A stretch of DNA of 64,000 nucleotides from Lytechinus pictus (Eukaryota): the NCBI RefSeq assembly GCF_037042905.1, contig NC_087250.1, forward strand, positions 17,858,001 through 17,922,000, written 5' to 3'. Within the stretch, counting starts at the first letter, position 1; each line of letters opens with the position of its first letter. Of this stretch, positions 14,281-58,623 are shown in pieces. The notes below the pieces were generated by a model. It searched no databases, was not told where the DNA came from, and saw only the letters and a program-made list of their open reading frames with translations. Made by a program: the position numbers and the translations under genes.

Positions 14281-17200
14281 TCAAACTGCCCTGCTGAGAA
14301 AATCCGCGCCAACATTCTCCGAACCTGGTATAGCTTCAATATGGAACCTATAAGGTTGGAGAGATAAAGCCCACCTCATGATTCTACTATTAGTCGACTT
14401 AGACTGGTTAAGGTAGACGAGGGGTTTGTGATCTGTCTCCAATATAAACTCTCGTCCATCTAGGTATACCTGAAATTTACTAATTCCCCAAACGATTGCG
14501 AGACATTCGCGTTCAATGGCAGAGTACGCTTGCTCCCTGGGAAGTAACTTTCTGCTGGCATAAGCAACAGGGCGTTTTCCTTCTTCTTTTTCTTGAAAGA
14601 GAACTGCTCCGATACCTGTTGACGAGGCATCAGTGCGAATGATGAAGGGCTTAGCGACATCAGCTAAGCAAAGAACTGGAGCTGTAGACAAACAGTCTTT
14701 CAACTGCTGAAAAGCCTTCTTGTCTGATTCACTCCAAACAAGCTTGTTGGGCTGACGACCTTTGGTCTTGTCTGTCAGAGGAGCTGCAATTGATGCAAAA
14801 TCAGGGATAAACTTGCGGTAGTAGTTTATCATCCCGATGAACGATCTCATCTGCTTCTTTGTCTCTGGCGGTGGAGCGTTGCGAATCTTTTCCACCTTGT
14901 CTTGCATCGGTAGAAGCTTGTCCTCTCCCACGATGTGGCCTAGATATTCAATCTGGTTACATCCTATTTGACACTTACTTGGCCGTGCCGTCAAACCAGC
15001 TGAACGAAGTCTGTTGAAGACTTCTCCAAGAACATGGAGATGTTCCTCCCATGTACGAGTATGGATGAGTATGTCATCCAAGTAGTTATGAACGCAAGGC
15101 ATACCTTTGAGCAGTGATCTCATTACCCGACTGAAAGTTGCCGGCGCATTAACAAGACCGAAAGGCATCCTGCAAAACTGGTACAGTCCACTTGGACTAC
15201 GGAATGCAGTCTTCTCTTTAGCATCCTCGGATAAGGGAATCTGCCAGTACCCTTTAGATAGATCTACTTTTGAGAAGTACTTACATCCTGATAGACTTGC
15301 GAAAATCTCATCACTGTTGGGAATGGGTTCTGCGTCGAACACTGTCACTCGATTCAATCGACGAAAATCTACGCAGAAACGGTTTGTCCCATCAGCTTTT
15401 CCAACTAACACAATTGGCGATGAATAAGGAGACTCAGACTGCTCAATCACTCCCATCTCGAGCATCTTCTTGACTTCTTCCTCAATTGTGTTCTTGCGAG
15501 CATGTGCAGTGGGGTATGGTCTCTGACGTACTGGCTCATCTGTAGTCAGCTTGATTGAATGAGTGCCCAACTTACACTCTCCTGGAAGATCAGTAAGGAC
15601 TTTCCTGTAATCAAGTAACAAAGACTTTACCTCACGCTTCTGCTCCTTAGATAAGTTCTTGCACACTGAAACATCTTCTGTCGTCTCAGTTGCTTCAAGT
15701 GGAGGGAGATGAATACTGATGGACTTGAGCTTCCCTGACATCGGACTAGCTTCACTGTCATCATCCTCGGTCACGACAACAGCTTGAGCGCTAACCGCTG
15801 GATCTTCATCACCCGTCAAAGACTCTTCTCTGTCTTCTTCTCTGCTGATATAACGTTTCAACAAATTAGCATGGAAAGTCTTAAGTTTTCCATTAATGTC
15901 TAACCTATAATCCTGATCACTGAGCTTGTGCACAACAGTGAATGGACCTTTCCACTGTACTAACAATTTGTTGTGTTCAGTAGGTAACAACAACAAAACT
16001 TGATCTCCTACCTGAAATCTTCTCTCCCTACTCTTCGAGTTGTAGTACTTTGAACTTCTTTCCATCGACTTCCTCAGCTCTTGCTGTGCAACCTCTAGCG
16101 TCGATTCCAGTCGTTCCTTCAGCTCGACTACATACTGGTAGGTTGATTTCAACTCCTCATTCTGCTGCTTACCCGTCCAAAGTTCCTTGAGAATCATTAA
16201 GGGTCCTCTTACAGTGCGTCCGTACAGGAGTTCGAAAGGTGAGAAACCCATAGAAGCCTGAGGAGCCTCCCTGTAAGCAAACAAAATAGGTGCGAGATAC
16301 CGATCCCAATCAGAGGGACGGTCTGAACAAGTTCTTCGTAAAATCTTCTTCAACGTGCCGTTGAATCGTTCAACGAGCCCATTGCAGGCAGGGTGATATG
16401 GGGTCGTCATCATTTGCTTTATTGAAAGCAACTTCCCAATATCCTTCATAAGATCAGAGGTGAACTGAGTGCCCTGATCTGACAAAATCTCCTGTGGTAC
16501 ACCGACTCTGGAGAAAATCTGAACAAGTGCCTCTGCAACAGTAGTTGTCTCTATGTTGGGCAAGGCTACCGCCTCTGGGTACCTAGTAGCACAATCAACC
16601 ACTGTAAGAATATACCTATTCTTCCTGGAAGTGATAGGTTGAATCGGTCCTATCAAATCAACAGCTATTCTCTTGAATGGAACATCGATAATTGGCATCT
16701 TGCCAAGAGGAACTCGTGGGACCCTTCCCTTGCTAATAGTTCTCTGACAGATATCACACGACTGGCAGAATCTACTCACATCTGCTTGTAATCCTGGCCA
16801 AAAGAAACTCAACATTATCTTATCTGAAGTCTTTTTGACACCCTGATGTCCACCCATAATACCTTCATGTGCCAGTTTCATAACAACCTTCCGATAGGGC
16901 TTAGGCACAACAAGTTGCACAACCTGGTTTCCATTCACAACACTACTTGGTTGGAAAACTCTATGCAGCAAACCATCCTGAAAGAAAAAATAATTTCTCT
17001 TACCTTCTTTGCTACCATCCTCGGTCTCAGCAAGTTCTCTTGCCTTCTTAAGTGTAGGATCTGCTAACTGTGCTTCCTGTATATCCTGTGGAGAAACTTC
17101 TGGAATGGGAGACATTACCTTCAAAGGAGCTTGCTTTCTCTCAGCAGCTTTAACCTGTGACCTCGTCTCAACAGCCATCCCCACCTCAGACAAAGCATTA

Positions 17201-18741
17201 TCTGTGACAACATTACCTGATGTCGGCATTCCCCAATTTGGATTCGGCGCATCTGGAGGAAGAACATTCTGGATATTTCCTACAATAACATCAAACAGTG
17301 GTGCTCGTACACAAAGCGCCACAACGGTTCCTACAAAAAACGGACAATCAATATGTATCGTAGCCGTAGGATACCAACGTACCGTACCATCAATGAGAAT
17401 ACACAGCTTGTATTTCCCAGTCATCTGATCCTTCTTGACTAGTTTCTTCCGAATCACAACACAAGTACACCCTGTGTCTCTAAGAACAGAAACTGTCTGA
17501 GAATTCACAATACCATCAGTAACAGGCATTAGTTCGCGTAACTTACCTTTACAAGTCGCACACATCTCAGATATTTTCTTCTTCTGTTTCTTCCTCTGTT
17601 TCCTCGTAGGTCTTGTCTGGTCCATACCTGAGGCAGACATCATGACAAACAGCCCACTCTCAAGCTGGGATGTATCACTGCCATCACCTAAATCTTTAGA
17701 AGAAGAACACGTAGGACATGGATCATGAAATTTAGTCTTACCTGAAGACTTCCTATGTTTATTGGTTTTGGACCCAATATCTACAAAACTTCCACCCTTC
17801 TCAGGTATTGATTTAGAACTTGACTTACAATTTCTTGCAAGGTGACCCATTTGATCACACAGATAGCAAGGACCAATTTGCTTTCGGCCCTTAGGCTTTT
17901 CCCTATGAAAACCATCACTCTTTGTTTCAGACTTATGAGGTGTCATTACTTTGGTTTCCTTTCTTGGACCCTTGAAATGACCACCATGTGCTGAAATATA
18001 AATCTGAGCAGTTTCAGTCATTTCCCTTGTCGACTGAGGAGTACGCTCTCTCAGGTAAATAGCTAATCCTGGATTTATCTGCTCTAAGAACTGCTGTCTA
18101 ATTATCAAATCTTTCAACCCTTCAAATGATTTGGCTGTATCTGTCAGATCTACCCATCTTTCGAAGTAATGTTCTAACCTCGCCATAAACTGACCAGCAG
18201 ACTCTCCTGTCTCTGGAGTTGCTCTGTAGAACTTCTTCCGGAAGTCATCTGCAGACATCTGGTATCTACGAAGGAGGGCGCCCTTGAGAGTTGAATACTT
18301 AGCAGCTTCATCTGGTGCCAACCTACTGTAGACTTCTAGAGCCTTCCCCTGTAGAAGTGCACCTAAATTAATGGCCCAACAATCACTTTGCCATTTCTGA
18401 CTATTTGCGTACCTTTCAAAACGCTCTAGGTATGCATCTATGTTATCCCTACTTTCGTCAAAGTGAGGTAACTTTGGGACTTTTGTCAAACTATGGGTTC
18501 GCATACTGTTATTTCCTAACTGGGATTCATTACCCTTATTAGCCTGCACTAAGGCCAACTGTTTATCTAATATATTTTCCTCTAACTGCTTTAACTCAAT
18601 TTCCTGTCTCCTATCTTCCCTTACAGTTGCTCTCTCTTCTCTTGCTTGTTGTTCTCTATCCTTAATGAAATCCAACAAGTCTTTACCCACTAATCCTAAC
18701 TCCTTACCTAAGTTAATCAATTTTTCATCAATAGAATCCAT
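14281..18741 (-). CDS. gag-pol: Gag-Pol polyprotein, 1486 aa: Gag with CCHC knuckle, protease, integrase, RT, RNase H
   Basis: CYLCDQMGHLARNC; LRDTG; HHCC plus AVDLIGP/SDQG/GLVERFN and WKGPF; NYLDDIL; RTDAS...IERECLA...TDH, in that order. Confidence 0.96.
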   Translation of the reverse strand: MDSIDEKLINLGKELGLVGKDLLDFIKDREQQAREERATVREDRRQEIELKQLEENILDKQLALVQANKGNESQLGNNSMRTHSLTKVPKLPHFDESRDNIDAYLERFERYANSQKWQSDCWAINLGALLQGKALEVYSRLAPDEAAKYSTLKGALLRRYQMSADDFRKKFYRATPETGESAGQFMARLEHYFERWVDLTDTAKSFEGLKDLIIRQQFLEQINPGLAIYLRERTPQSTREMTETAQIYISAHGGHFKGPRKETKVMTPHKSETKSDGFHREKPKGRKQIGPCYLCDQMGHLARNCKSSSKSIPEKGGSFVDIGSKTNKHRKSSGKTKFHDPCPTCSSSKDLGDGSDTSQLESGLFVMMSASGMDQTRPTRKQRKKQKKKISEMCATCKGKLRELMPVTDGIVNSQTVSVLRDTGCTCVVIRKKLVKKDQMTGKYKLCILIDGTVRWYPTATIHIDCPFFVGTVVALCVRAPLFDVIVGNIQNVLPPDAPNPNWGMPTSGNVVTDNALSEVGMAVETRSQVKAAERKQAPLKVMSPIPEVSPQDIQEAQLADPTLKKARELAETEDGSKEGKRNYFFFQDGLLHRVFQPSSVVNGNQVVQLVVPKPYRKVVMKLAHEGIMGGHQGVKKTSDKIMLSFFWPGLQADVSRFCQSCDICQRTISKGRVPRVPLGKMPIIDVPFKRIAVDLIGPIQPITSRKNRYILTVVDCATRYPEAVALPNIETTTVAEALVQIFSRVGVPQEILSDQGTQFTSDLMKDIGKLLSIKQMMTTPYHPACNGLVERFNGTLKKILRRTCSDRPSDWDRYLAPILFAYREAPQASMGFSPFELLYGRTVRGPLMILKELWTGKQQNEELKSTYQYVVELKERLESTLEVAQQELRKSMERSSKYYNSKSRERRFQVGDQVLLLLPTEHNKLLVQWKGPFTVVHKLSDQDYRLDINGKLKTFHANLLKRYISREEDREESLTGDEDPAVSAQAVVVTEDDDSEASPMSGKLKSISIHLPPLEATETTEDVSVCKNLSKEQKREVKSLLLDYRKVLTDLPGECKLGTHSIKLTTDEPVRQRPYPTAHARKNTIEEEVKKMLEMGVIEQSESPYSSPIVLVGKADGTNRFCVDFRRLNRVTVFDAEPIPNSDEIFASLSGCKYFSKVDLSKGYWQIPLSEDAKEKTAFRSPSGLYQFCRMPFGLVNAPATFSRVMRSLLKGMPCVHNYLDDILIHTRTWEEHLHVLGEVFNRLRSAGLTARPSKCQIGCNQIEYLGHIVGEDKLLPMQDKVEKIRNAPPPETKKQMRSFIGMINYYRKFIPDFASIAAPLTDKTKGRQPNKLVWSESDKKAFQQLKDCLSTAPVLCLADVAKPFIIRTDASSTGIGAVLFQEKEEGKRPVAYASRKLLPREQAYSAIERECLAIVWGISKFQVYLDGREFILETDHKPLVYLNQSKSTNSRIMRWALSLQPYRFHIEAIPGSENVGADFLSRAV

Positions 18742-19193
18742 TATGAAAACTCAACCAGGCAGGACTATTGTATCAAAAGGTTAAAATTCTATCTGAGAAA
18801 ATAACTTCTTCCAAACACGCGCGCAAAGTTACGCAAAATGATTACTTACCAAAGAATCAAGAACACTTTAACCGACTTGGAAGACTTGCATCCGATTTCC
18901 GTTCTAATCACCAAATCACAACTATTCCTATTATTGAAGAGAATACAAAACATTCAAAGAGAAGTAGCATTAACGATCAAAACGGTAAATAATATTCACA
19001 TGAAATTACATTCTATGGAGTATCCTGCTTTGACTTGATAATATCTAATATATCCCATTATACAAAGCAAAAATAATGTCCAAGAACAATCTATGAATAT
19101 TCTTAGGTAGAAAAATTCCAAATTTGTACTTCACAAAATGAGAATATCTATTTCACTTTTGGTAATAAAGAAGTATAAGAGGAAACCTAATTC

Positions 19194-44520: not shown

Positions 44521-44929
44521 TACATATGAAAGTATACAAGTCATTTGAAGAGAAAATAATTATTCTTTAATCATTTTACACAGAGCTCCTACACTATATG
44601 CGCTCAATTACTAAACTTTACATTTGCAACATTGAAAGAAAAAATAACCGAAACCAAAAAAGTGCCAGAATTTTATGAAATATATTACAATTGCTGTAGC
44701 ACGAAAAAATATATGCTTAAAATGCATTCTTGCAGGACTTCAGTGCCTACATTATAACTTATGACAAATGACTCATCATGACAAAACATTCAAAATAATG
44801 CAACAGAAATTGAATTTATAAAGGCTAGAAAGTCAGATTCTGAGAAACTAATGCTATACAACTTTCTTAGATTTAGAAAGAGTAACCTGAAACATGACCT
44901 CGGTGTATACATATATATATATATATATA

Positions 44930-45035
44930 TTGTGAAAGAAATGGATGAAGAGAACATTCTCTTCATCCATTTCTTTCACAAAATATTTAAACAAAAGAGT
45001 TGCCAAAGCTGTTGTGCATGTATAATGTCACACAT
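44930..45035. mobile_element. Collapsed miniature relative of the 57482-58587 element, within (TA)n
   Basis: 25-bp perfect hairpin TTGTGAAAGAAATGGATGAAGAGAA plus a tail of about 55 nt homologous to the unit terminus. Confidence 0.75.
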
Positions 45036-45055
45036 TATATATATATATATATACA

Positions 45056-46426: not shown

Positions 46427-49400
46427 TGTAGTATTTTCCTAATTTCATCCTACTTCATTTCTCAACTTTGCCTTCTATTACTCATCAGCTTTGAGAGGAC
46501 ATTGGATACCAGTTACTTCCACTCCTTAGCAATAAACAAGTGGTAAATAACGACCCTCCGCACAGCACACTCACCTGTGACTCACTATAAATTCTATGAA
46601 TTGGTACCTCTCTCTCCCCTCTCTCTTTGTTTACATCCTACATCTCATTTGGGATGAAAACTACAACTTTCTTTTCGGACACTTCTCAAAGTTTTCTTCT
46701 TCAGTAAACACGTGTTTTGAGAACGTCGTCAAATAACTTAATACATTTGTGGATTCCAGCATCTCACTTGGAGCAAAATCATCCATTGCATCTTCCACAG
46801 CATATCATTTCAAATTTGCGTACTACCCTTTTTTCTCCGTCATTTTCACTAAGATAAAATCCATATACCGCTTGTGCTAGCCAAGTTATTTTTTGTGATA
46901 TAATCTTGTTTGGTTTTGTGTCATTGGGATTGTGCAATAATTGGAACACTTTGTTATATTGGAGGATTGTCTGTCGGATCTCTACACGCATAAAGTCGGT
47001 AAGTGGAGATTGGCTTATTACCATTTCATCTTATAAACCAACCCCGCTTCACTGGTGACCCCGACGTGATCTAAACCCGACCAACGTGATGAGAACAGTC
47101 ATCCTTCGTCAAATAATGTTCTAATTATTATCTCCCTTTCTTCTAATTTCATTGTCGACTCACTTACATTCTTCAATATGTCGACTTGCAATCAAAATCA
47201 CACTTTCTCGCAACCAACTACTAGTACTGGTACTTCTATTCAAGATTTAAGAGCAGAACTATCAAAACTTACAATTGCTATCGACGCATATCGTCAACGT
47301 CAAGCTCGTCACAATAATCATTCTCCCTCACATCAACATGCCGGAGATTATTGTTATTATCATTGGCGATTTGGTACAAAATCTCACAAATGTGTACCAC
47401 CTTGCAAATTCAAAAAGGCTTCAAACAAACAGGACACCAACAAACCGAAGCTAGCAACAACCAACCAATCTTCCGCACAATCAAAAAGTCGCCTTTTCTA
47501 CATCACAGATAGGAAAACTGGAATTCGTTTTTTGGTCGACACAGGAGCTGATGTTAGAGTTCGTCCTCCATCAAAAGCCGAAAAACATCATCCTTCATCA
47601 AAATTCTATCTACAAGCAGTTAATCGCTCAAGCATTTCGACTTATGGAGAACGAAGCCTGACTCTCGACGTTGGCCTGCGTCGAGCTTGCAGATGGATTT
47701 TCATCATTGCTGATATTCCTATTCCTATCATCGGGGCAGACTTCCTTTTGGTTTTCTTGTTGATGTGCGCAATCTCAAGCTCATCGACTCTTCTACCAAT
47801 CTATCTATTACTGGCATCCTTTCTTCATCTCCTTCTATCAGTCCTATGTTTCTGAAGCCAGAAAATCAAGCTGCCTACAAATCTATCCTTGACAAATTTC
47901 CTGACATCACACGCCCTGTGTATAAGGAGGCTGAGATCAAGCACTTCGTCGCCCATCACATTGTGACGAAAGGCCCTCCTGTTTCATCCCGTCCTCGTCG
48001 CCTAGCAACCGATAGGTACAATATCGCGAAGGCAGAATTCAACCATATGCTGGAACTAGGCATCATTCAACCGCCTAGCAGCAACTGGGCATCCCCACTT
48101 CATATGGTGCCCAAGAAAACACCCGGAGACTGGAGACCGTGTGGAGACTATCGTACACTAAATAGGAATACAGTGCCCGACAAATATCCCATTCCCCATC
48201 TCCAAGACTTTACATCTGCCCTAGCAGGCAAGCGAGTTTTCTCAAAACTCGATCTCGTACGAGCATATCATCAGATTCCTGTCGATCCAGCAGATGTAAA
48301 CAAAACAGCTATCACCACACCCTTTGGGTTATTTGAGTTTGTACGCATGCCTTTTGGGTCACGCAATGCCGCACAAACTTTTCAACGATTCATTGATGAA
48401 GTAACCCGTGGTCTTCCATTTGTGTACGCCTACATCGATCTGCTCATCGCTAGCGGATATGAAGAGAAGCACAAGCAACATCTCCAGCTACTTTTCGCTC
48501 GACTCTCGAAATATGGCGTCGTCATCAACCCAGCCAAGTGTGAATTCGGCGCATCTTCTCTCACCTTTCTCGGACACATTGTTGATGAGAACGGCATCCG
48601 CCCTCTTCCCGAGAAAGTCAAAGTCATCAACAATTTCCCTGTTCCTGATTCTCTTCGCAAACTCAGAAAATTTCTAGGACTAGTCAATTTCTATCGTCGC
48701 TTCATTACTGATTGTGCAACTTTCACTTAATCACTCACCGATCTATTGGCATGCAAGCAGAAAAACAAAGCAATCCATCTCGACGATGCAGCCCTCAATG
48801 CATTCAACTCAGTGAAAACAGCTCTCGCTCAAGCTACTCTCCTTTCACACCCAAAACCTAATGCCCCACTCTGCAATATGGTTGATGCATCAGATGTTGC
48901 TGTTGGAGTTGTGTTGCAGCAACACATTGACGATGACTGGCAACCCATCGCCTTCTTCTCAAAACGCCTGCAGCCAGCTGAGACAAGATATAGCACATTC
49001 GGTCGTGAACTTCTCTCTGTGTATCTCAATATTCGTCACTTCAGACATGCACTTAAAGGACGACATTCTTCATCTATACTGATCACAAACCTCTCACTCA
49101 TGCCTTTAATGCTAGACCTGACAAGTATTCACCACGTGAAGTCAGACACCTAGACTACATATCTCAAATCAGCACAGATATAAGGCATATAAGTGGAAAA
49201 CACAATGTAGTGGCAGACACTCTATCTCGCATGGAAATCAACTCCATCACTTCAACTCCTACCATTGATTTCAATGCCATTGCCGCTGCCCAGGAGGATG
49301 ACGAGGAACTCAAGCAACTCACTTCAACCTCGCTCAAACTTGAACCTCTACCTCTTCCTACTTCTGACTCTACTATCCTATGCGACACTTCAACTACCAA

Positions 49401-51337
49401 TCCTCGCCCTTACATCCCATCTGAATTCCGACGAGTTGTATTTGATGCTCTTCACAACCTATCTCACCCTGGCATCAATGCTACCCAAAAACTCATAACA
49501 GACAGATTTGTTTGGCCTGGAATTAACAAAGATGTTCGAAATTGGACCAAAACTTGCATACAGTGTCAACGTTGTAAAGTACACCCTCACACCAAGACAC
49601 CGATAGGTACTTTTTCAACACCTGATGCTAGATTCGATCACATTCATATCGATCTGGTGGGACCACTTCCTCCTTCAAATGGCAATACATATCTTCTCAC
49701 ATGTGTTGACCGTTTCACCAGATGGCCTGAGGCAATACCAATTCCTGACATATCAGCTGAGACTGTTGCCCGAGCATTCATTTCACACTGGGTATCTCGC
49801 TTCGGTGCTCCCTCAACCATCACTACCGATAGAGGTCGGCAATTCGAATCTTCCCTCTTTCGAGCTCTAACTCATTTTCTTGGTAGCTCTAGAATTCGAA
49901 CTACATCTTTTCATCCTGTTTCAAATGGACTGGATGAGCGCTTTCATCGGCAACTTAAAGCGTCACTCAAAACTACCCCTTCTTCACGATGGACTGAAAC
50001 TCTCCCTCTCGTCATGCTTGGAATTCGAACTGCAGTCAAATCTGATTTGGGATGTTGCGCTGCTGAGCTTGTTTATGGAACAACTTTAAGATTGCCAGGT
50101 CAGTTTGTAGCACCTAATCAGAATGATTGTGATTTGGACCCTAGCAACTACATCCATCGACTGATAAAACAAATGGAGAACCTGAAACCTCAGCCCACTC
50201 GTGTTCCACATCGCAAACCACAAGTCCACCCTGATCTCACATCATGCACCCATGTCTTTGTGCGTCATATGATGCTGTCAAGAAACCCCTTCAACCACCC
50301 TATGATGGCCCATATCAAGTCATCAAGCGAGCTAATAAGTATTTCACCATCCTACTCAAAGGAAAACATGCATGAAACTATCAGTCTCGACCGTCTGAAA
50401 CCAGCATATTTGGAACCACCCATTTCACCAACCATTCCAACCACTGTTCAACCGAGCCTATCTACTCCTGACAATCCTAAACCTTCTTAAGTGACTACTA
50501 CACCAACCACTAAGCCTCCGCCTCCCTCCATCACTCCTTCTTCATCATCCACCAAGCCTGAACTCAGACAAACTCGTTCAGGTAGAAAGGTGCATTTTCC
50601 AAAGCGTTTTGTTCAAGTCTTTCATTTCAATTGAGAAATTATTTTCTTCATTTGGACTATTACTATTTTCTTTGTTATCGACCGTTTCATTTTATTCAAC
50701 GATCTAGGAGGGGGCTGATGTAGTATTTTCCAAATTTCATCCTACTTCATTTCTCAACTTTGCCTTCTATTACTCATCATCTTTGAGAGGACATTACCCA
50801 TGGATACCAGTTACTTCCACTCCTTAGCAATAAACATGCCAACAAGTGGTCAATAGCGACCCTCAGCACAGCACACTCACCTGTGACTCACTATAAATTC
50901 TCTGAATTGGTACCTCTCTGTCTCCCCTCTCATTTGGGATGAAAACTACAACTTTCTTTTCGGACACTTCTCAAAGTTTTCTTCTTCAGTAAACACGTGT
51001 TTTGAGAACGTCGTCAAATAACTTAATACATTTGTGGATTCCAGCATCTCACTTGGAGCAAATTCATCCATTGCATCTTCCACAGCATATCATTTCAAAT
51101 TTGCGTACTACCCTTTTTTCTCCGTAATTTTCACTAAGATAAAATCCATATACCGCTTGTGCTAGCCAAGTTATTTTTTGTGATATAATCTTGTGTGATT
51201 TTGTGTCATTGGGATTGTGCAATAATTGGAGCACTTTGTTATATTGGAGGATTGTCTGTCGGATCTCTACACGCATAAAGTCGGTAAAGTGAAGATTGGC
51301 TTATTACCATTTCATCTTATAAACCAACCCCGCTTCA
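46427..51337 (+). mobile_element. Decayed Ty3/Gypsy LTR retrotransposon, CsRn1/Kabuki-like
   Basis: LTRs 46427-47051 and 50719-51337 (several indels), 4-bp TSD GTAT, tRNA-Trp PBS TGGTGACCCCGACGTGAT at 47053-47070, PPT AGGAGGGGG before the 3' LTR, CHCC Gag motif. Confidence 0.93.
47178..50490 (+). pseudogene. gag-pol: Disrupted gag-pol (CHCC, PR, RT, RH, IN)
   Basis: CYYHWRFGTKSHKCVPPC; LVDTGA; RT with YID-LL (one catalytic Asp lost); VDASD; HIDLVGP/TDRG/ERFH; split over four ORFs by frameshifts and a stop. Confidence 0.92.
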
Positions 51338-55627: not shown

Positions 55628-55657
55628 GATCAAATTTTCGCCCATAGGGCTTCATCA
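55628..55657 (-). ncRNA. 5'-truncated hammerhead-like motif in a short insert between (TA)n tracts
   Basis: TGATGA-A-GCCC tat GGGC-GAAA-ATTT; 5' strand of stem I missing. Confidence 0.45.
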
Positions 55658-55679
55658 TATATATATATATATATATATA

Positions 55680-57475
55680 CAGTGCGTCCCAAAAAAAACT
55701 ATACACTTTTGAAATGGCTGCCAAATAAAAAATATAGCAGTTTGGGGAAAAAGACTTACATATATGGAAAGCCAATAAAGTCAACTTTCAAATGACACCA
55801 AAAGTTGGAAAACTGTTCATGCTTGAGCGAGCACTGCCCACTGAAACAATGGGTATGAAAATTAGGGTGGGCTGGAATTAGCCTTCCAATTTATGTCAGT
55901 TTTTAAGAGGCAAATCCTTACGAACTTGCAAAGTTAAGGGCGTTGTGATGAATTAATGATCAACCGTGACCAGTTTTGGTTGCTTATGCAAATTTTCTAA
56001 ATTATTAAATTGAACTTTAATGTATGAGTCAACACAAATTACACTTTTGGGGCAGCATTTCAACTTTATCATTTGGATCTCTTTTTGGGCAGCATTTCAA
56101 CTTTATCATGTGGATCTCAGCAGTGTGTTCATGGGAGTCGGGAGAATAGGGGGTGAGATAGGCCTTAAGTGGGAGAAGTAGGTTGATCGAATAAGGGTCA
56201 ACAGAACATTCAGCCCCCGCCCCCTCCCTCTTTCCTGCCCTCCCCTCCTGTTGAGAGACTGGTGGCTATTGTCATGTACGCGTGAAGTCCAGAGCGGAAT
56301 GTTGATTTAATGATTAATTCTGAATTGGGGCATCAACTTTTTCCTATCAATCATTTCATCAACAATTTATCAGTAAATCAACTCATTCAATGTGCAATGT
56401 GATCAATCAAACATTCATGTTTTTTTCTTCTATAAATTATTTCATTAATCATCATAATCATTAAATTTCTTGGTAATAATTCAATAAAAAATGACCATCA
56501 GCCACCGGTCACTTGGCAGCTAAGTTTTGAATAGGCTACAATCCAGGAAGGGAGACAGAGAGGGGGGCTGGGAAATGGAGGTGGAGAGGGGAGGGTACAT
56601 ATTTTAATTTGTAAAAGGACAAAAAGAAGAGGAATGCCCTTTTAACCAAGTCTTAGCATATCTCGCCCTCTTGCTTGTAACAGGTACCATCACATTACTC
56701 TGACTCTCACGAACACATTTCTGAGGTCAACAAGATGAATATGCTACACTAAAATTACAATTCCTGTTCACTCATGCATTAAATTTCAATTTAGTAACTC
56801 ATGAAATTTGCCTAAGAAACCAAAAACTTATCTCACTCATTAATTTAGCTTAGCAAGTTCCAAAGGACTAACCACTCAAAAAATTGTAAGGCTAATTCCT
56901 GCCCAGCCTAGCCGAGCTTAGTGTCTGAGGAGGAGAGAAGCGGGGGGGGGGGGGTTGAGATGGAGGGAGGGGTTGCTAAATGTTCTGTTGACCTTTCTCC
57001 CATCAACGTTCTTCACCTACCTAAGTCATATTACCCCCTTTTCTCCTGACTTTCATAAACACATTGTTGAGATCCACATGAAAAAAGACAAAATGCTGCA
57101 CTAAAAATTGCAATTCACGATCACTCATGCATTAAATTTCAATGTAATAAATTCAATTTAATAACGCAATAAATTTTCACAAACAACAAACTGATCACAA
57201 CTGATCTTTAATTCACCAAATAACCCTCAACTTTGCAAGTACCAAACAAAAAACCTGAAAGAAATTGGAAGGCTAATTCCGGCCCACCCTAATTTTCATA
57301 CCCTTTGTTTCAGTGGGCAGTGCTCGCTCAAGCATGAATAGTTTTCCAACTTTTTGGTGTCACTTGAAAGTTGACTTTATTGGCTTTTCATATCTATAAG
57401 TTATTTCCCCCAAAGTGCTATATTTTTTGTTTGGCAGCCATTTCAAAAGTGTATAGTTTTTTTTGGGACGCACTG
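55680..57475. mobile_element. Tc1/mariner-like non-autonomous foldback element
   Basis: TA|CAGTGCGTCCC...GGGACGCACTG|TA; about 200 bp of near-identical TIR with diverged symmetry further in. Confidence 0.88.
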
Positions 57476-57631
57476 TATATGTGTGTAAAGTTATACATGT
57501 TCAACAGCTTCGGCAACTCTTTTTATTTAAATATTGTAAAGAAATGGATGAAGAGAACAATGGTAGGCGTAGCTTAAATCAAGGTTCCCCAGAGCTATCT
57601 TCCCTTTGGAAAAATTGGTGATGCCGAAAAA

Positions 57632-57703
57632 TGTCTCTGCCGGGTATCGAACCCGGGCCCCCAGCTTTGAACGCCGGTGCCTTAACCACTAGACCACAGA
57701 GAC
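57632..57703 (-). tRNA. tRNA-like gene, 72 nt, anticodon UCA, followed by T5
   Basis: Hand-folded cloverleaf with all stems paired (7/4/5/5 bp), A box TGGTCTAGTGG, B box GGTTCGATACC, loop GTTCAAA. Confidence 0.7.
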
Positions 57704-58414
57704 GGGTTAGTGGCTAGGGCGACCCCGATCCGATTGACCGTCAGATAGACAAATTTTCGACACTATACCAATTATAATTTCCTTTGTCGGGTGAAGGTGG
57801 GTTTCGAACAATGACAAGCCGCCATGCTTCAGCTGGATCAAAGCTATTGCTTTGATACAGTACACGTAGGGGGAACGTATACAAATGTGTAAAGTTATAC
57901 ATGTACAACAGCTTCGGCAACTCTTTTTATTTAAATATTGTAAAGAAATGGATGAAGAGAACAATGGTAGGCGTAGCTTAAATCAAGGTTCCCCAGAGCT
58001 ATCTTCCCTTTGGAAAAATTGGTGATGCCGAAAAAATGTCTCTGCCGGGAATCGAACCCGGGCCCCCAGCCCCCAGATACATTTTTTCGGCATCACCAAT
58101 TTTTCCAAAGGGAAGATAGCTCTGGGGAACCTTGATTTAAGCTACGCCTACCATTGTTCTCTTCATCCATTTCTTTACAATATTTAAATAAAAAGAGTTG
58201 CCGAAGCTGTTGTACATGTATAACTTTACACATTTGTATACGTTCCCCCTACGTGTACTGTATCAAAGCAATAGCTTTGATCCAGCTGAAGCATGGCGGC
58301 TTGTCATTGTTCGAAACCCACCTTCACCCGACAAAGGAAATTATAATTGGTATAGTGTCGAAAATTTGTCTATCTGACGGTCAATCGGATCGGGGTCGCC
58401 CTAGCCACTAACCC

Positions 58415-58486
58415 GTCTCTGTGGTCTAGTGGTTAAGGCACCGGCGTTCAAAGCTGGGGGCCCGGGTTCGATTCCCGCCAGAGACA
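58415..58486 (+). tRNA. Second copy of the tRNA-like gene, anticodon UCA, followed by T6
   Basis: Same fold with one T-stem mismatch (C49-C65); anticodon TCA at 58448-58450. Confidence 0.62.
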
Positions 58487-58581
58487 TTTTTTCGGCATCA
58501 CCAATTTTTCCAAAGGGAAGATAGCTCTGGGGAACCTTGATTTAAGCTACGCCTACCATTGTTCTCTTCATCCAATTCTTT

Positions 58582-58623
<42 letters not shown>

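Follow-up and report, generated by a model that had tools for sequence, protein, structure and literature searches.

The window, a stretch of 64,000 nucleotides of the Lytechinus pictus genome (NC_087250.1, positions 17,858,001 to 17,922,000), holds exactly two tRNA-like genes. Both were called by ARAGORN, which was run on the whole window and reported none besides, and both carry the anticodon TCA: copy 1 at 57632-57703 on the minus strand and copy 2 at 58415-58486 on the plus strand. Scored with the full Rfam tRNA model (RF00005), copy 1 reached 57.5 bits (E 2e-10) and copy 2 53.2 bits (E 3e-9). The majority sequence of the family scored 60.9, and host tRNA-Lys genes scored up to 67.8-75 among the 49 Rfam matches listed. 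Copy 1 is a class I cloverleaf of 72 nt with TCA at the centre of the loop (57670-57668), G at position 32 and A at position 73. It is followed directly on its 3′ side by a run of five T (57627-57631, minus strand), a candidate Pol III terminator that is also paired in the rod fold predicted for the unit. The anticodon position of copy 2 is 58448-58450, and a run of six T stands directly behind it (58487-58492, plus strand). Each copy differs from the family majority by one change, an A in the T-loop of copy 1 and a T-stem change in copy 2. As the latter breaks one pair, the four fully paired stems claimed in the initial annotation hold for copy 1 only. The remainder of that description, namely two 72-nt cloverleaves with a TCA loop, a T-run and intact A and B boxes, agrees with the ARAGORN calls, the RF00005 scores and the T5 and T6 runs, and the boxes are intact in all subfamilies.

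Both tRNA-like genes are arms of one head-to-head insertion (57482-58588) of a tandem unit of 405 bp, numbered here from the 5′ first base of the tRNA. Their placement on a mobile repeat, which had been proposed from the window alone, was thus upheld, and the tRNA pattern has 2,039 genomic matches. No frame of at least 150 aa crosses the insertion, which is therefore non-coding. The left arm (57482-58070, minus strand) consists of unit positions 39-405 and then 1-223; it stops at the "long" of two fixed 3′ ends, beside TA. The right arm (58074-58588, plus strand) consists of positions 65-405 and then 1-174, and its "short" fixed 3′ end joins a (TA)n microsatellite (58585-58620), the insertion target by sequence and end mapping. 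At the inversion junction the truncated 5′ end of the left arm contributes a third, partial tRNA copy, the 3′ half with positions 39-72 (58037-58070, minus strand). Each complete tRNA is preceded by a stretch (unit ~340-405; 57704-57769 on the minus strand and 58349-58414 on the plus strand) which in predicted folds is imperfectly complementary to the T-run and to tRNA positions 9-72 outside the anticodon arm. In a transcript that reads through the right arm, this stretch and copy 2 are predicted to form one long hairpin. The predicted fold of 58331-58500 has -75 kcal/mol, and only the anticodon stem of the cloverleaf remains in it. An AGCT...AGCTACG segment (unit 108-137) lies at 58522-58551 (plus strand), with GCTACG ~40 nt before the short end; further copies are at 58141 (plus), 57568 (minus) and 57972 (minus). 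A short, older head-to-head remnant of the unit (~146-214, without the tRNA) is present in (TA)n at 44906-45036. Immediately to the left of the insertion, at 55651-57504, there is an element of ~1.8 kb in TA with long terminal inverted repeats (86-94% complementary), which resembles a Tc1/mariner-type miniature element.

A search of the genome (812 Mb) with a pattern of the D-arm plus TCA gave 2,039 exact matches, and the control gave 0. The unit is 404-412 nt long and occurs in tandem; a pattern for a unit missing exactly the tRNA had 0 matches. Ends were mapped in a young set of 39 loci, which comprised the window and 38 loci from the best 40 of 1,020 candidates scored. An end at unit ~172 or ~223 was found in 39 of 39 loci, giving two fixed 3′ ends ~52 nt apart that nearly always join (TA)n. 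When all alignment ends were counted, internal breaks included, 64 of 118 entered a TA-type repeat. The 5′ ends are scattered over the unit. An apparent clustering of 5′ ends inside the tRNA was discarded, since the loci had been chosen in a register that favours such clustering. The head-to-head arrangement was seen in 19 of the 39 loci. Arrays range from one unit to more than 20 (L070), and L033 has 16 identical units. The median number of differences was 1 within arrays (n=17) as against 12.5 between loci (n=37); the exception to this uniformity is L070, with 16 different units among 20. The low difference within arrays fits copying from a single short template, and uniform arrays also arise by DNA-level homogenisation. 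A further long array (L246) starts at position 8866137 of contig C2 and has a period of 406 bp, with at least 33 units among those listed. The counts of matches on the two strands (1,248 and 791) suggest that many copies lie in a small number of long arrays. Searches of metagenomes gave 0 matches to a tight tRNA pattern and 19 to a loose one, none of them with the unit body, and viral contigs gave 0 matches to the loose pattern. Eight metagenome contigs carry SINE-like heads with TCA at the anticodon position and without an acceptor stem; having been found by a pattern that demands TCA, they no more than hint at TCA being frequent in such heads.

Craig et al. 2021 (PMC8557442) describe insertions of Penelope-like elements (PLEs) as truncated at the 5′ end and partly tandem, with a tail at one end, (TA)n as target and an inverted 5′ copy; MRC1 of Chlamys is among the multicopy forms that are non-autonomous. 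The tail is attributed to two internal start sites of reverse transcription and is termed unique to PLEs (Frangieh et al. 2024, PMC11167929). The unit shows several traits of a non-autonomous PLE: partial tandems, 5′ truncation, an inverted 5′ copy, two fixed 3′ ends, a microsatellite target and lack of coding sequence. Insertions of MRC1, Neptune and Naiad elements, as described (PMC8557442), share with it the head-to-tail multicopy layout, the truncated 5′ end, the inverted 5′ copy, the tail on one side and the (TA)n target. The genome also has young elements with reverse transcriptase (RT) and C-terminal GIY-YIG domains and a Cys motif ahead of the endonuclease, which makes them Neptune- or Nematis-type by Craig's description (PMC8557442); no element with an N-terminal endonuclease (Naiad) was seen among the long frames examined. 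These resident PLEs have a minimal hammerhead and then a (TA)n end. The spacing of their two ends is 52-56 nt in four families and 33-41 in two others, and GCTACG or a variant of it lies 31-37 nt ahead of the short end in four families. In the unit, GCTACG is at position 132, ~40 nt ahead of the short end, and the tail is ~52 nt. We take this motif to be the 3′ strand of hammerhead stem III with the cleavage triplet, and the AGCT...AGCTACG segment is likely what is left of a PLE hammerhead's 3′ half. The hammerhead core (CTGANGA...GAAA) is absent from both strands of the young family A, of A0 and of the older family B; a like pattern does find the minimal hammerheads of PLEs. An Rfam search of the unit gave no other ribozyme, and its silence on the hammerhead is uninformative because Rfam misses the resident PLE hammerheads too. 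Minimal type I hammerheads were observed in at least eight PLE families, and Rfam left them undetected in the four loci tested; for the hammerhead of L178, complete stems I and III can be drawn.

A search for an autonomous partner with clear shared 3′ sequence found none. BLAST against 50 PLE loci returned nested insertions only, and the 50 loci from a GIY-YIG search and 9 from an RT search (candidates scored: best 150 of 468 and best 134 of 596) yielded nothing but copies of the unit inserted in shared (TA)n. One PLE family (L144) is collinear with unit ~100-215 (p 0.010, 300 shuffles); being the best of 27 comparisons, this alignment is only suggestive. Elements of the MRC1 type generally share 3′ sequence with their partner (PMC8557442), whereas the unit shares geometry and a short motif only. 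A tRNA module like that of the unit is not described for MRC1-type PLEs in the accessible part of the same source. The ends, the tail and the target nevertheless make it likely that the unit is copied by a PLE reverse transcriptase.

The tRNA part was compared between family A and family B, the latter represented by a consensus of decayed copies at 30 loci (from the best 40 of 467 candidates scored). The B unit is 404 nt long and identical to A in 290 of 423 columns (69%; 31% divergence). Within the tRNA, 10 of 72 places differ. Eight of these are in stems, yet every pair is kept; in three pairs, two of which belong to the acceptor stem, both partners have changed. When eight transitions were placed at random, pairs were retained equally well in 0.15% of trials. 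The flanks are less alike, with 72 of 102 positions identical downstream and 86 of 140 upstream. The kept pairs and the compensatory changes indicate that the cloverleaf fold has been selected, beyond what a promoter needs. The stems thus do covary, and the initial reading of the sequence as a tRNA mimic stands. All 139 A sequences and 17 of 20 B sequences have a run of at least four T close to their 3′ end. The traits of a working class I tRNA gene are present: a cloverleaf with the invariant bases, A and B boxes, and a T-run. As for a parent among host tRNAs, an Rfam search gave tRNA-Lys loci only (best 63 of 73,101 candidates scored), and a pattern with equal acceptor and T arms returned copies of the element only (10 of 10). 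A second B box in the loop was considered and dropped, as it fits family A only. Among the tRNA-Lys loci, dozens of genes are clustered in tandem at 9.70-9.74 Mb of contig C4, and many of them carry single changes.

The unit RNA is predicted to fold into a viroid-like rod. Read from the first base of the tRNA, it has a predicted energy of -142 kcal/mol (z -6.9), which none of 100 shuffles reached. The final ~65 nt are base-paired to tRNA positions 9-72 and to the T-run, the tip is made of positions 1-8 and only the anticodon arm survives, as a side hairpin, so that both ends of the unit are brought to one tip. As a circle the RNA is predicted at -136.8 kcal/mol, as against -111.7 with the cloverleaf forced. 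Without the tRNA the z value of the unit is -4.1. Two other young units gave z -6.3 and -6.9 and a decayed unit with TCC gave -2.1, while five controls (a PLE repeat and four pieces of the window) ranged from -1.3 to +0.9. Family B, folded independently, gave the same rod (z -6.7). Among the 92 long-range pairs of A, 53 are identical in the fold of B and 63 lie within 3 nt. Of the alignable rod pairs, 68 of 81 are canonical in B (53 unchanged, 11 changed on one side, four on both sides) and 13 are broken. For changes placed at random, the number of kept pairs was 58.9 +/- 3.3, and 10 of 2000 trials were as high as 68. The unit is therefore predicted to carry an antisense stretch that unfolds or masks its own tRNA. 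The 5′ strand of the acceptor stem is unpaired in the rod and yet covaries, which suggests that both folds are needed at some stage.

We propose that the unit is a non-coding 405-bp passenger of PLEs, copied by a PLE reverse transcriptase, in which the tRNA look-alike defines the unit-length RNA where related repeats use a hammerhead. We give this reading a probability of about 0.5. The tRNA mimic likely defines the RNA unit by a Pol III start and/or an RNase P cut. The closest known systems are the animal non-LTR retrozymes, which derive from pseudo-LTRs of PLEs (Li, Clavereau & Pollet 2026, 10.64898/2026.07.22.740005) and whose circles serve as templates for tandem cDNA (Cervera & de la Peña 2020, PMC7229834). 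As described in these two sources, they share with the present unit the lack of coding sequence, tandem repetition at a unit size of a few hundred bases, dispersed arrays, a highly self-paired predicted RNA, a link to PLE pseudo-LTRs and a proposed rolling-circle reverse transcription. The retrozyme unit size of 150-400 nt with highly self-paired RNA compares with 404-412 nt and a predicted rod here. Animal retrozymes carry a type I hammerhead in each unit, whereas here there is none and a complete tRNA-like gene with a T-run stands instead; the 2026 preprint (10.64898/2026.07.22.740005) does not contain the word tRNA. Masking of a ribozyme by a complementary stretch is described for plant retrozymes and viroids, and not for animal retrozymes, in the text consulted of PMC7229834.

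On this basis a fuller scheme, a retrozyme with its ribozyme swapped for a tRNA mimic, is offered tentatively. Transcription would start at, or run through, a tRNA. The rod of one unit would then close on its own tRNA, leaving the tRNA of the next unit free to fold as a cloverleaf, and RNase P would cut the tandem transcript at the 5′ end of that cloverleaf. If Pol III is the polymerase, it would stop at the T-run behind the next tRNA. The released rod, in which the tRNA is hidden and the ends are adjacent, would be ligated into a circle. A Neptune-type PLE protein would nick (TA)n and copy the circle repeatedly from one of two internal start sites, and copying round and round would give arrays of near-identical units. 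Free tRNA-shaped RNA with a UCA loop would be shed, its UCA an inherited by-product of a SINE-type head rather than a decoding signal. Against the scheme, the unit has the T6 and a second T5, which would be expected to halt Pol III after ~75 nt, short of a whole unit. For a unit followed by the next tRNA, the equilibrium prediction favours the local hairpin with the anti-tRNA stretch (probability of acceptor pairs 0), the fold with a forced cloverleaf being 4 kcal/mol worse; an RNase P cut would thus need a kinetic route. RNase P leaves ends that differ from hammerhead ends, so another ligase would be needed.

Transcription of the unit was examined in two raw RNA runs carrying the same species label, which contained 1,670 and 1,134 unit reads among 12.9 million records each, about equally in both directions. 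There is no place where many molecules end, and 35% and 61% of the reads continue into unlike sequence. In one run, 223 reads span the unit junction of one variant, as would reads from the unit-length circular RNA that retrozymes express; transcripts of tandem DNA give equal reads. The unit is thus transcribed, much of the signal probably being read-through, and reads of 150 nt, which are blind to an RNA of 75 nt, are silent on the small RNA and on a circle.

A simpler form of the PLE passenger, in which the tRNA part serves solely as an internal Pol III promoter, like those of SINEs, Helenus and Cassandra, was weighed against these data. Here a leaky T-run would be read through, the multimeric RNA would be copied uncut, and the rod would stabilise the RNA or aid binding of the RT. 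The intact A and B boxes fit such a promoter, as does the head, identical in 46 of 61 columns to that of a resident SINE. Precedents exist: Helenus elements have tRNA-like promoters (PMC10886601), and hammerhead cleavage is reported to be dispensable for PLE insertion in vitro (PMC11167929). A promoter, however, needs the boxes and not the acceptor stem, and it is the acceptor stem that has two compensatory pairs here while the SINE head lacks one. Two early T-runs oppose long Pol III transcripts, and a single short template better accounts for the identical units within arrays. We therefore regard the promoter-only passenger as possible but rather unlikely.

The anticodon behaves differently from the cloverleaf. 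TCA is present in 122 of 123 young A copies and in 19 of 20 B sequences. When the third base was left free, 2,039 of 2,087 pattern matches read TCA and the other 48 comprised 30 TCC, 13 TCT and 5 TCG. This order, with G the rarest, is the reverse of transition-led decay from A, so that C and T are inherited states. Copies with TCC share further changes and cluster more than shuffled labels. An old subfamily, chosen by a motif downstream of the tRNA, was readable at 16 of 21 loci (four of the 21 were already in the earlier sets): nine read TCT, three TCA and four other triplets, and of the TCA calls two have an extra base (raw sequence TCT) and one rests on a doubtful alignment. A tree of 99 rows, one per locus and anticodon, fully supported the split of A and B and gave no resolution within A. 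A freely drifting anticodon had been named as evidence against suppression. In part this is what is seen, as the third base differs by mobilised sublineage (TCT, TCC, TCA), but A and B both read TCA. G32, noted from the start as non-canonical, is fixed in A, A0 and B; position 32 in working tRNAs is a pyrimidine. The resident SINE head has the same loop letters within its 46 identical columns and has no acceptor stem (24 sequences, some poor). Judged from these comparisons, the anticodon appears not to be selected, unlike the cloverleaf.

These observations bear on the possibility that a genuine, aminoacylated UCA tRNA is produced from the element and decodes UGA, either to the benefit of a UGA-bearing partner or as a side effect. 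The complete class I cloverleaf with its invariant bases and T-run and the prevalence of TCA in both families are in favour, as are the PLEs of the Naiad group with in-frame UGA codons, though these have SECIS elements (PMC8557442). Free tRNA-like RNA is also expected as a by-product of the preferred reading. Against it stand the inherited non-A third bases, TCT in nine of the 16 readable copies of the old subfamily, the fixed G32, the identical loop in the SINE head and the predicted antisense mask carried by the unit itself. Furthermore, PLE frames of 750-1,026 aa are open without UGA. Two related copies (L144 and L294) have one TGA each in the endonuclease, at different codons with Arg in a relative; programmed UGA was considered for them and the TGA codons are read as decay. 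An autonomous relative with a conserved in-frame UGA, which the initial annotation had suggested looking for, was not found among the PLE loci examined. Its proposal of a stand-alone opal suppressor consequently did not hold up, and a decoding role is improbable.

Two further identities were rejected, in agreement with the initial view of the sequence. Eukaryotic tRNA-Sec is described as 90-101 nt long, with a 9/4 fold, a 6-bp D-stem, a long variable arm and G73 (Santesmasses et al. 2017, PMC5330540). Apart from UCA at the anticodon position, the present sequence departs from this definition throughout, with 72 nt, a 7/5 fold, a 4-bp D-stem, a 4-nt variable loop and A73 in A, A0 and B, in ~2,000 copies. 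A tRNA-derived SINE begins at its tRNA head, closes with a LINE-type or A-rich tail and is a monomer; it resembles the unit in the D-arm, loop and B box of the head. The resident SINE family (three loci), which we take to be of MetaSINE type, starts at the head, is a monomer and lacks both the acceptor stem and a T-run behind the head, whereas the unit has them, with 5′ ends scattered over its length, tandem arrays and PLE-type 3′ ends; it is thus no ordinary SINE head.

Spread purely at the DNA level, as a satellite or a rolling-circle Helitron-type passenger with a captured tRNA-like head and no part for RNA, is very improbable: the long arrays (more than 20 units in L070 and the longer run on contig C2), some of which DNA slippage or unequal exchange may have lengthened, are in line with it, but the end structure largely refutes it, in that the ends are strand-polar (the 3′ ends fixed, the 5′ ends scattered), inversions occur and the two-end tail resembles that of the resident PLEs, and the predicted fold, which relies on G-U pairs, is stronger on the tRNA-sense strand (z -7.8) than on the opposite strand (z -3.7).

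The PLE passenger with a unit-defining tRNA mimic has a bearing on the role of the hammerhead of PLEs and retrozymes and on the origin of tandem insertions, which are treated as open questions (PMC8557442, PMC11167929). Here a young and abundant PLE passenger has lost the hammerhead core and has kept the cloverleaf and the predicted masking rod across 31% divergence. If RNase P cuts the RNA to unit length, a unit RNA with defined ends would be a conserved need, served by a ribozyme or by tRNA mimicry. If the scheme is true, it would amount to a tRNA-processing route to circular retroelement RNA and to a "SINE" of the Penelope class. In the literature searched, mostly open-access papers, no tRNA-bearing, hammerhead-less PLE passenger was found described.

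Predictions of "suppressor tRNAs" can all stem from one retroelement (Kojima 2024, PMC10886601), as in two rust-fungus genera, where all tRNA-Sup-CTA predictions are copies of Helenus. Helenus and Cassandra (TRIMp3), as described there, are like the present unit in that a look-alike of a small-RNA gene sits in a non-autonomous retroelement and inflates the counts of tRNA and "suppressor" calls. They are LTR elements with a primer binding site (PBS), a PPT and target duplications of 4-5 bp, whereas the ends of the unit are PLE-type and duplications are unreadable in (TA)n; in them conservation is greatest around the A and B boxes, whereas in the unit covariation extends over the entire cloverleaf. 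For annotation, this one repeat will yield ~2,000 false tRNA-Sec or suppressor calls in the L. pictus genome.

Two LTR retrotransposons are also present in the window. An intact frame of 1,489 aa at 14281-18750 (minus strand) has SCAN and zinc-knuckle matches, with integrase ahead of RT and RNase H, an order that resembles that of Gmr1-type Gypsy elements. The second, at 47070-50490 (plus strand), has several frames, with RT ahead of integrase.
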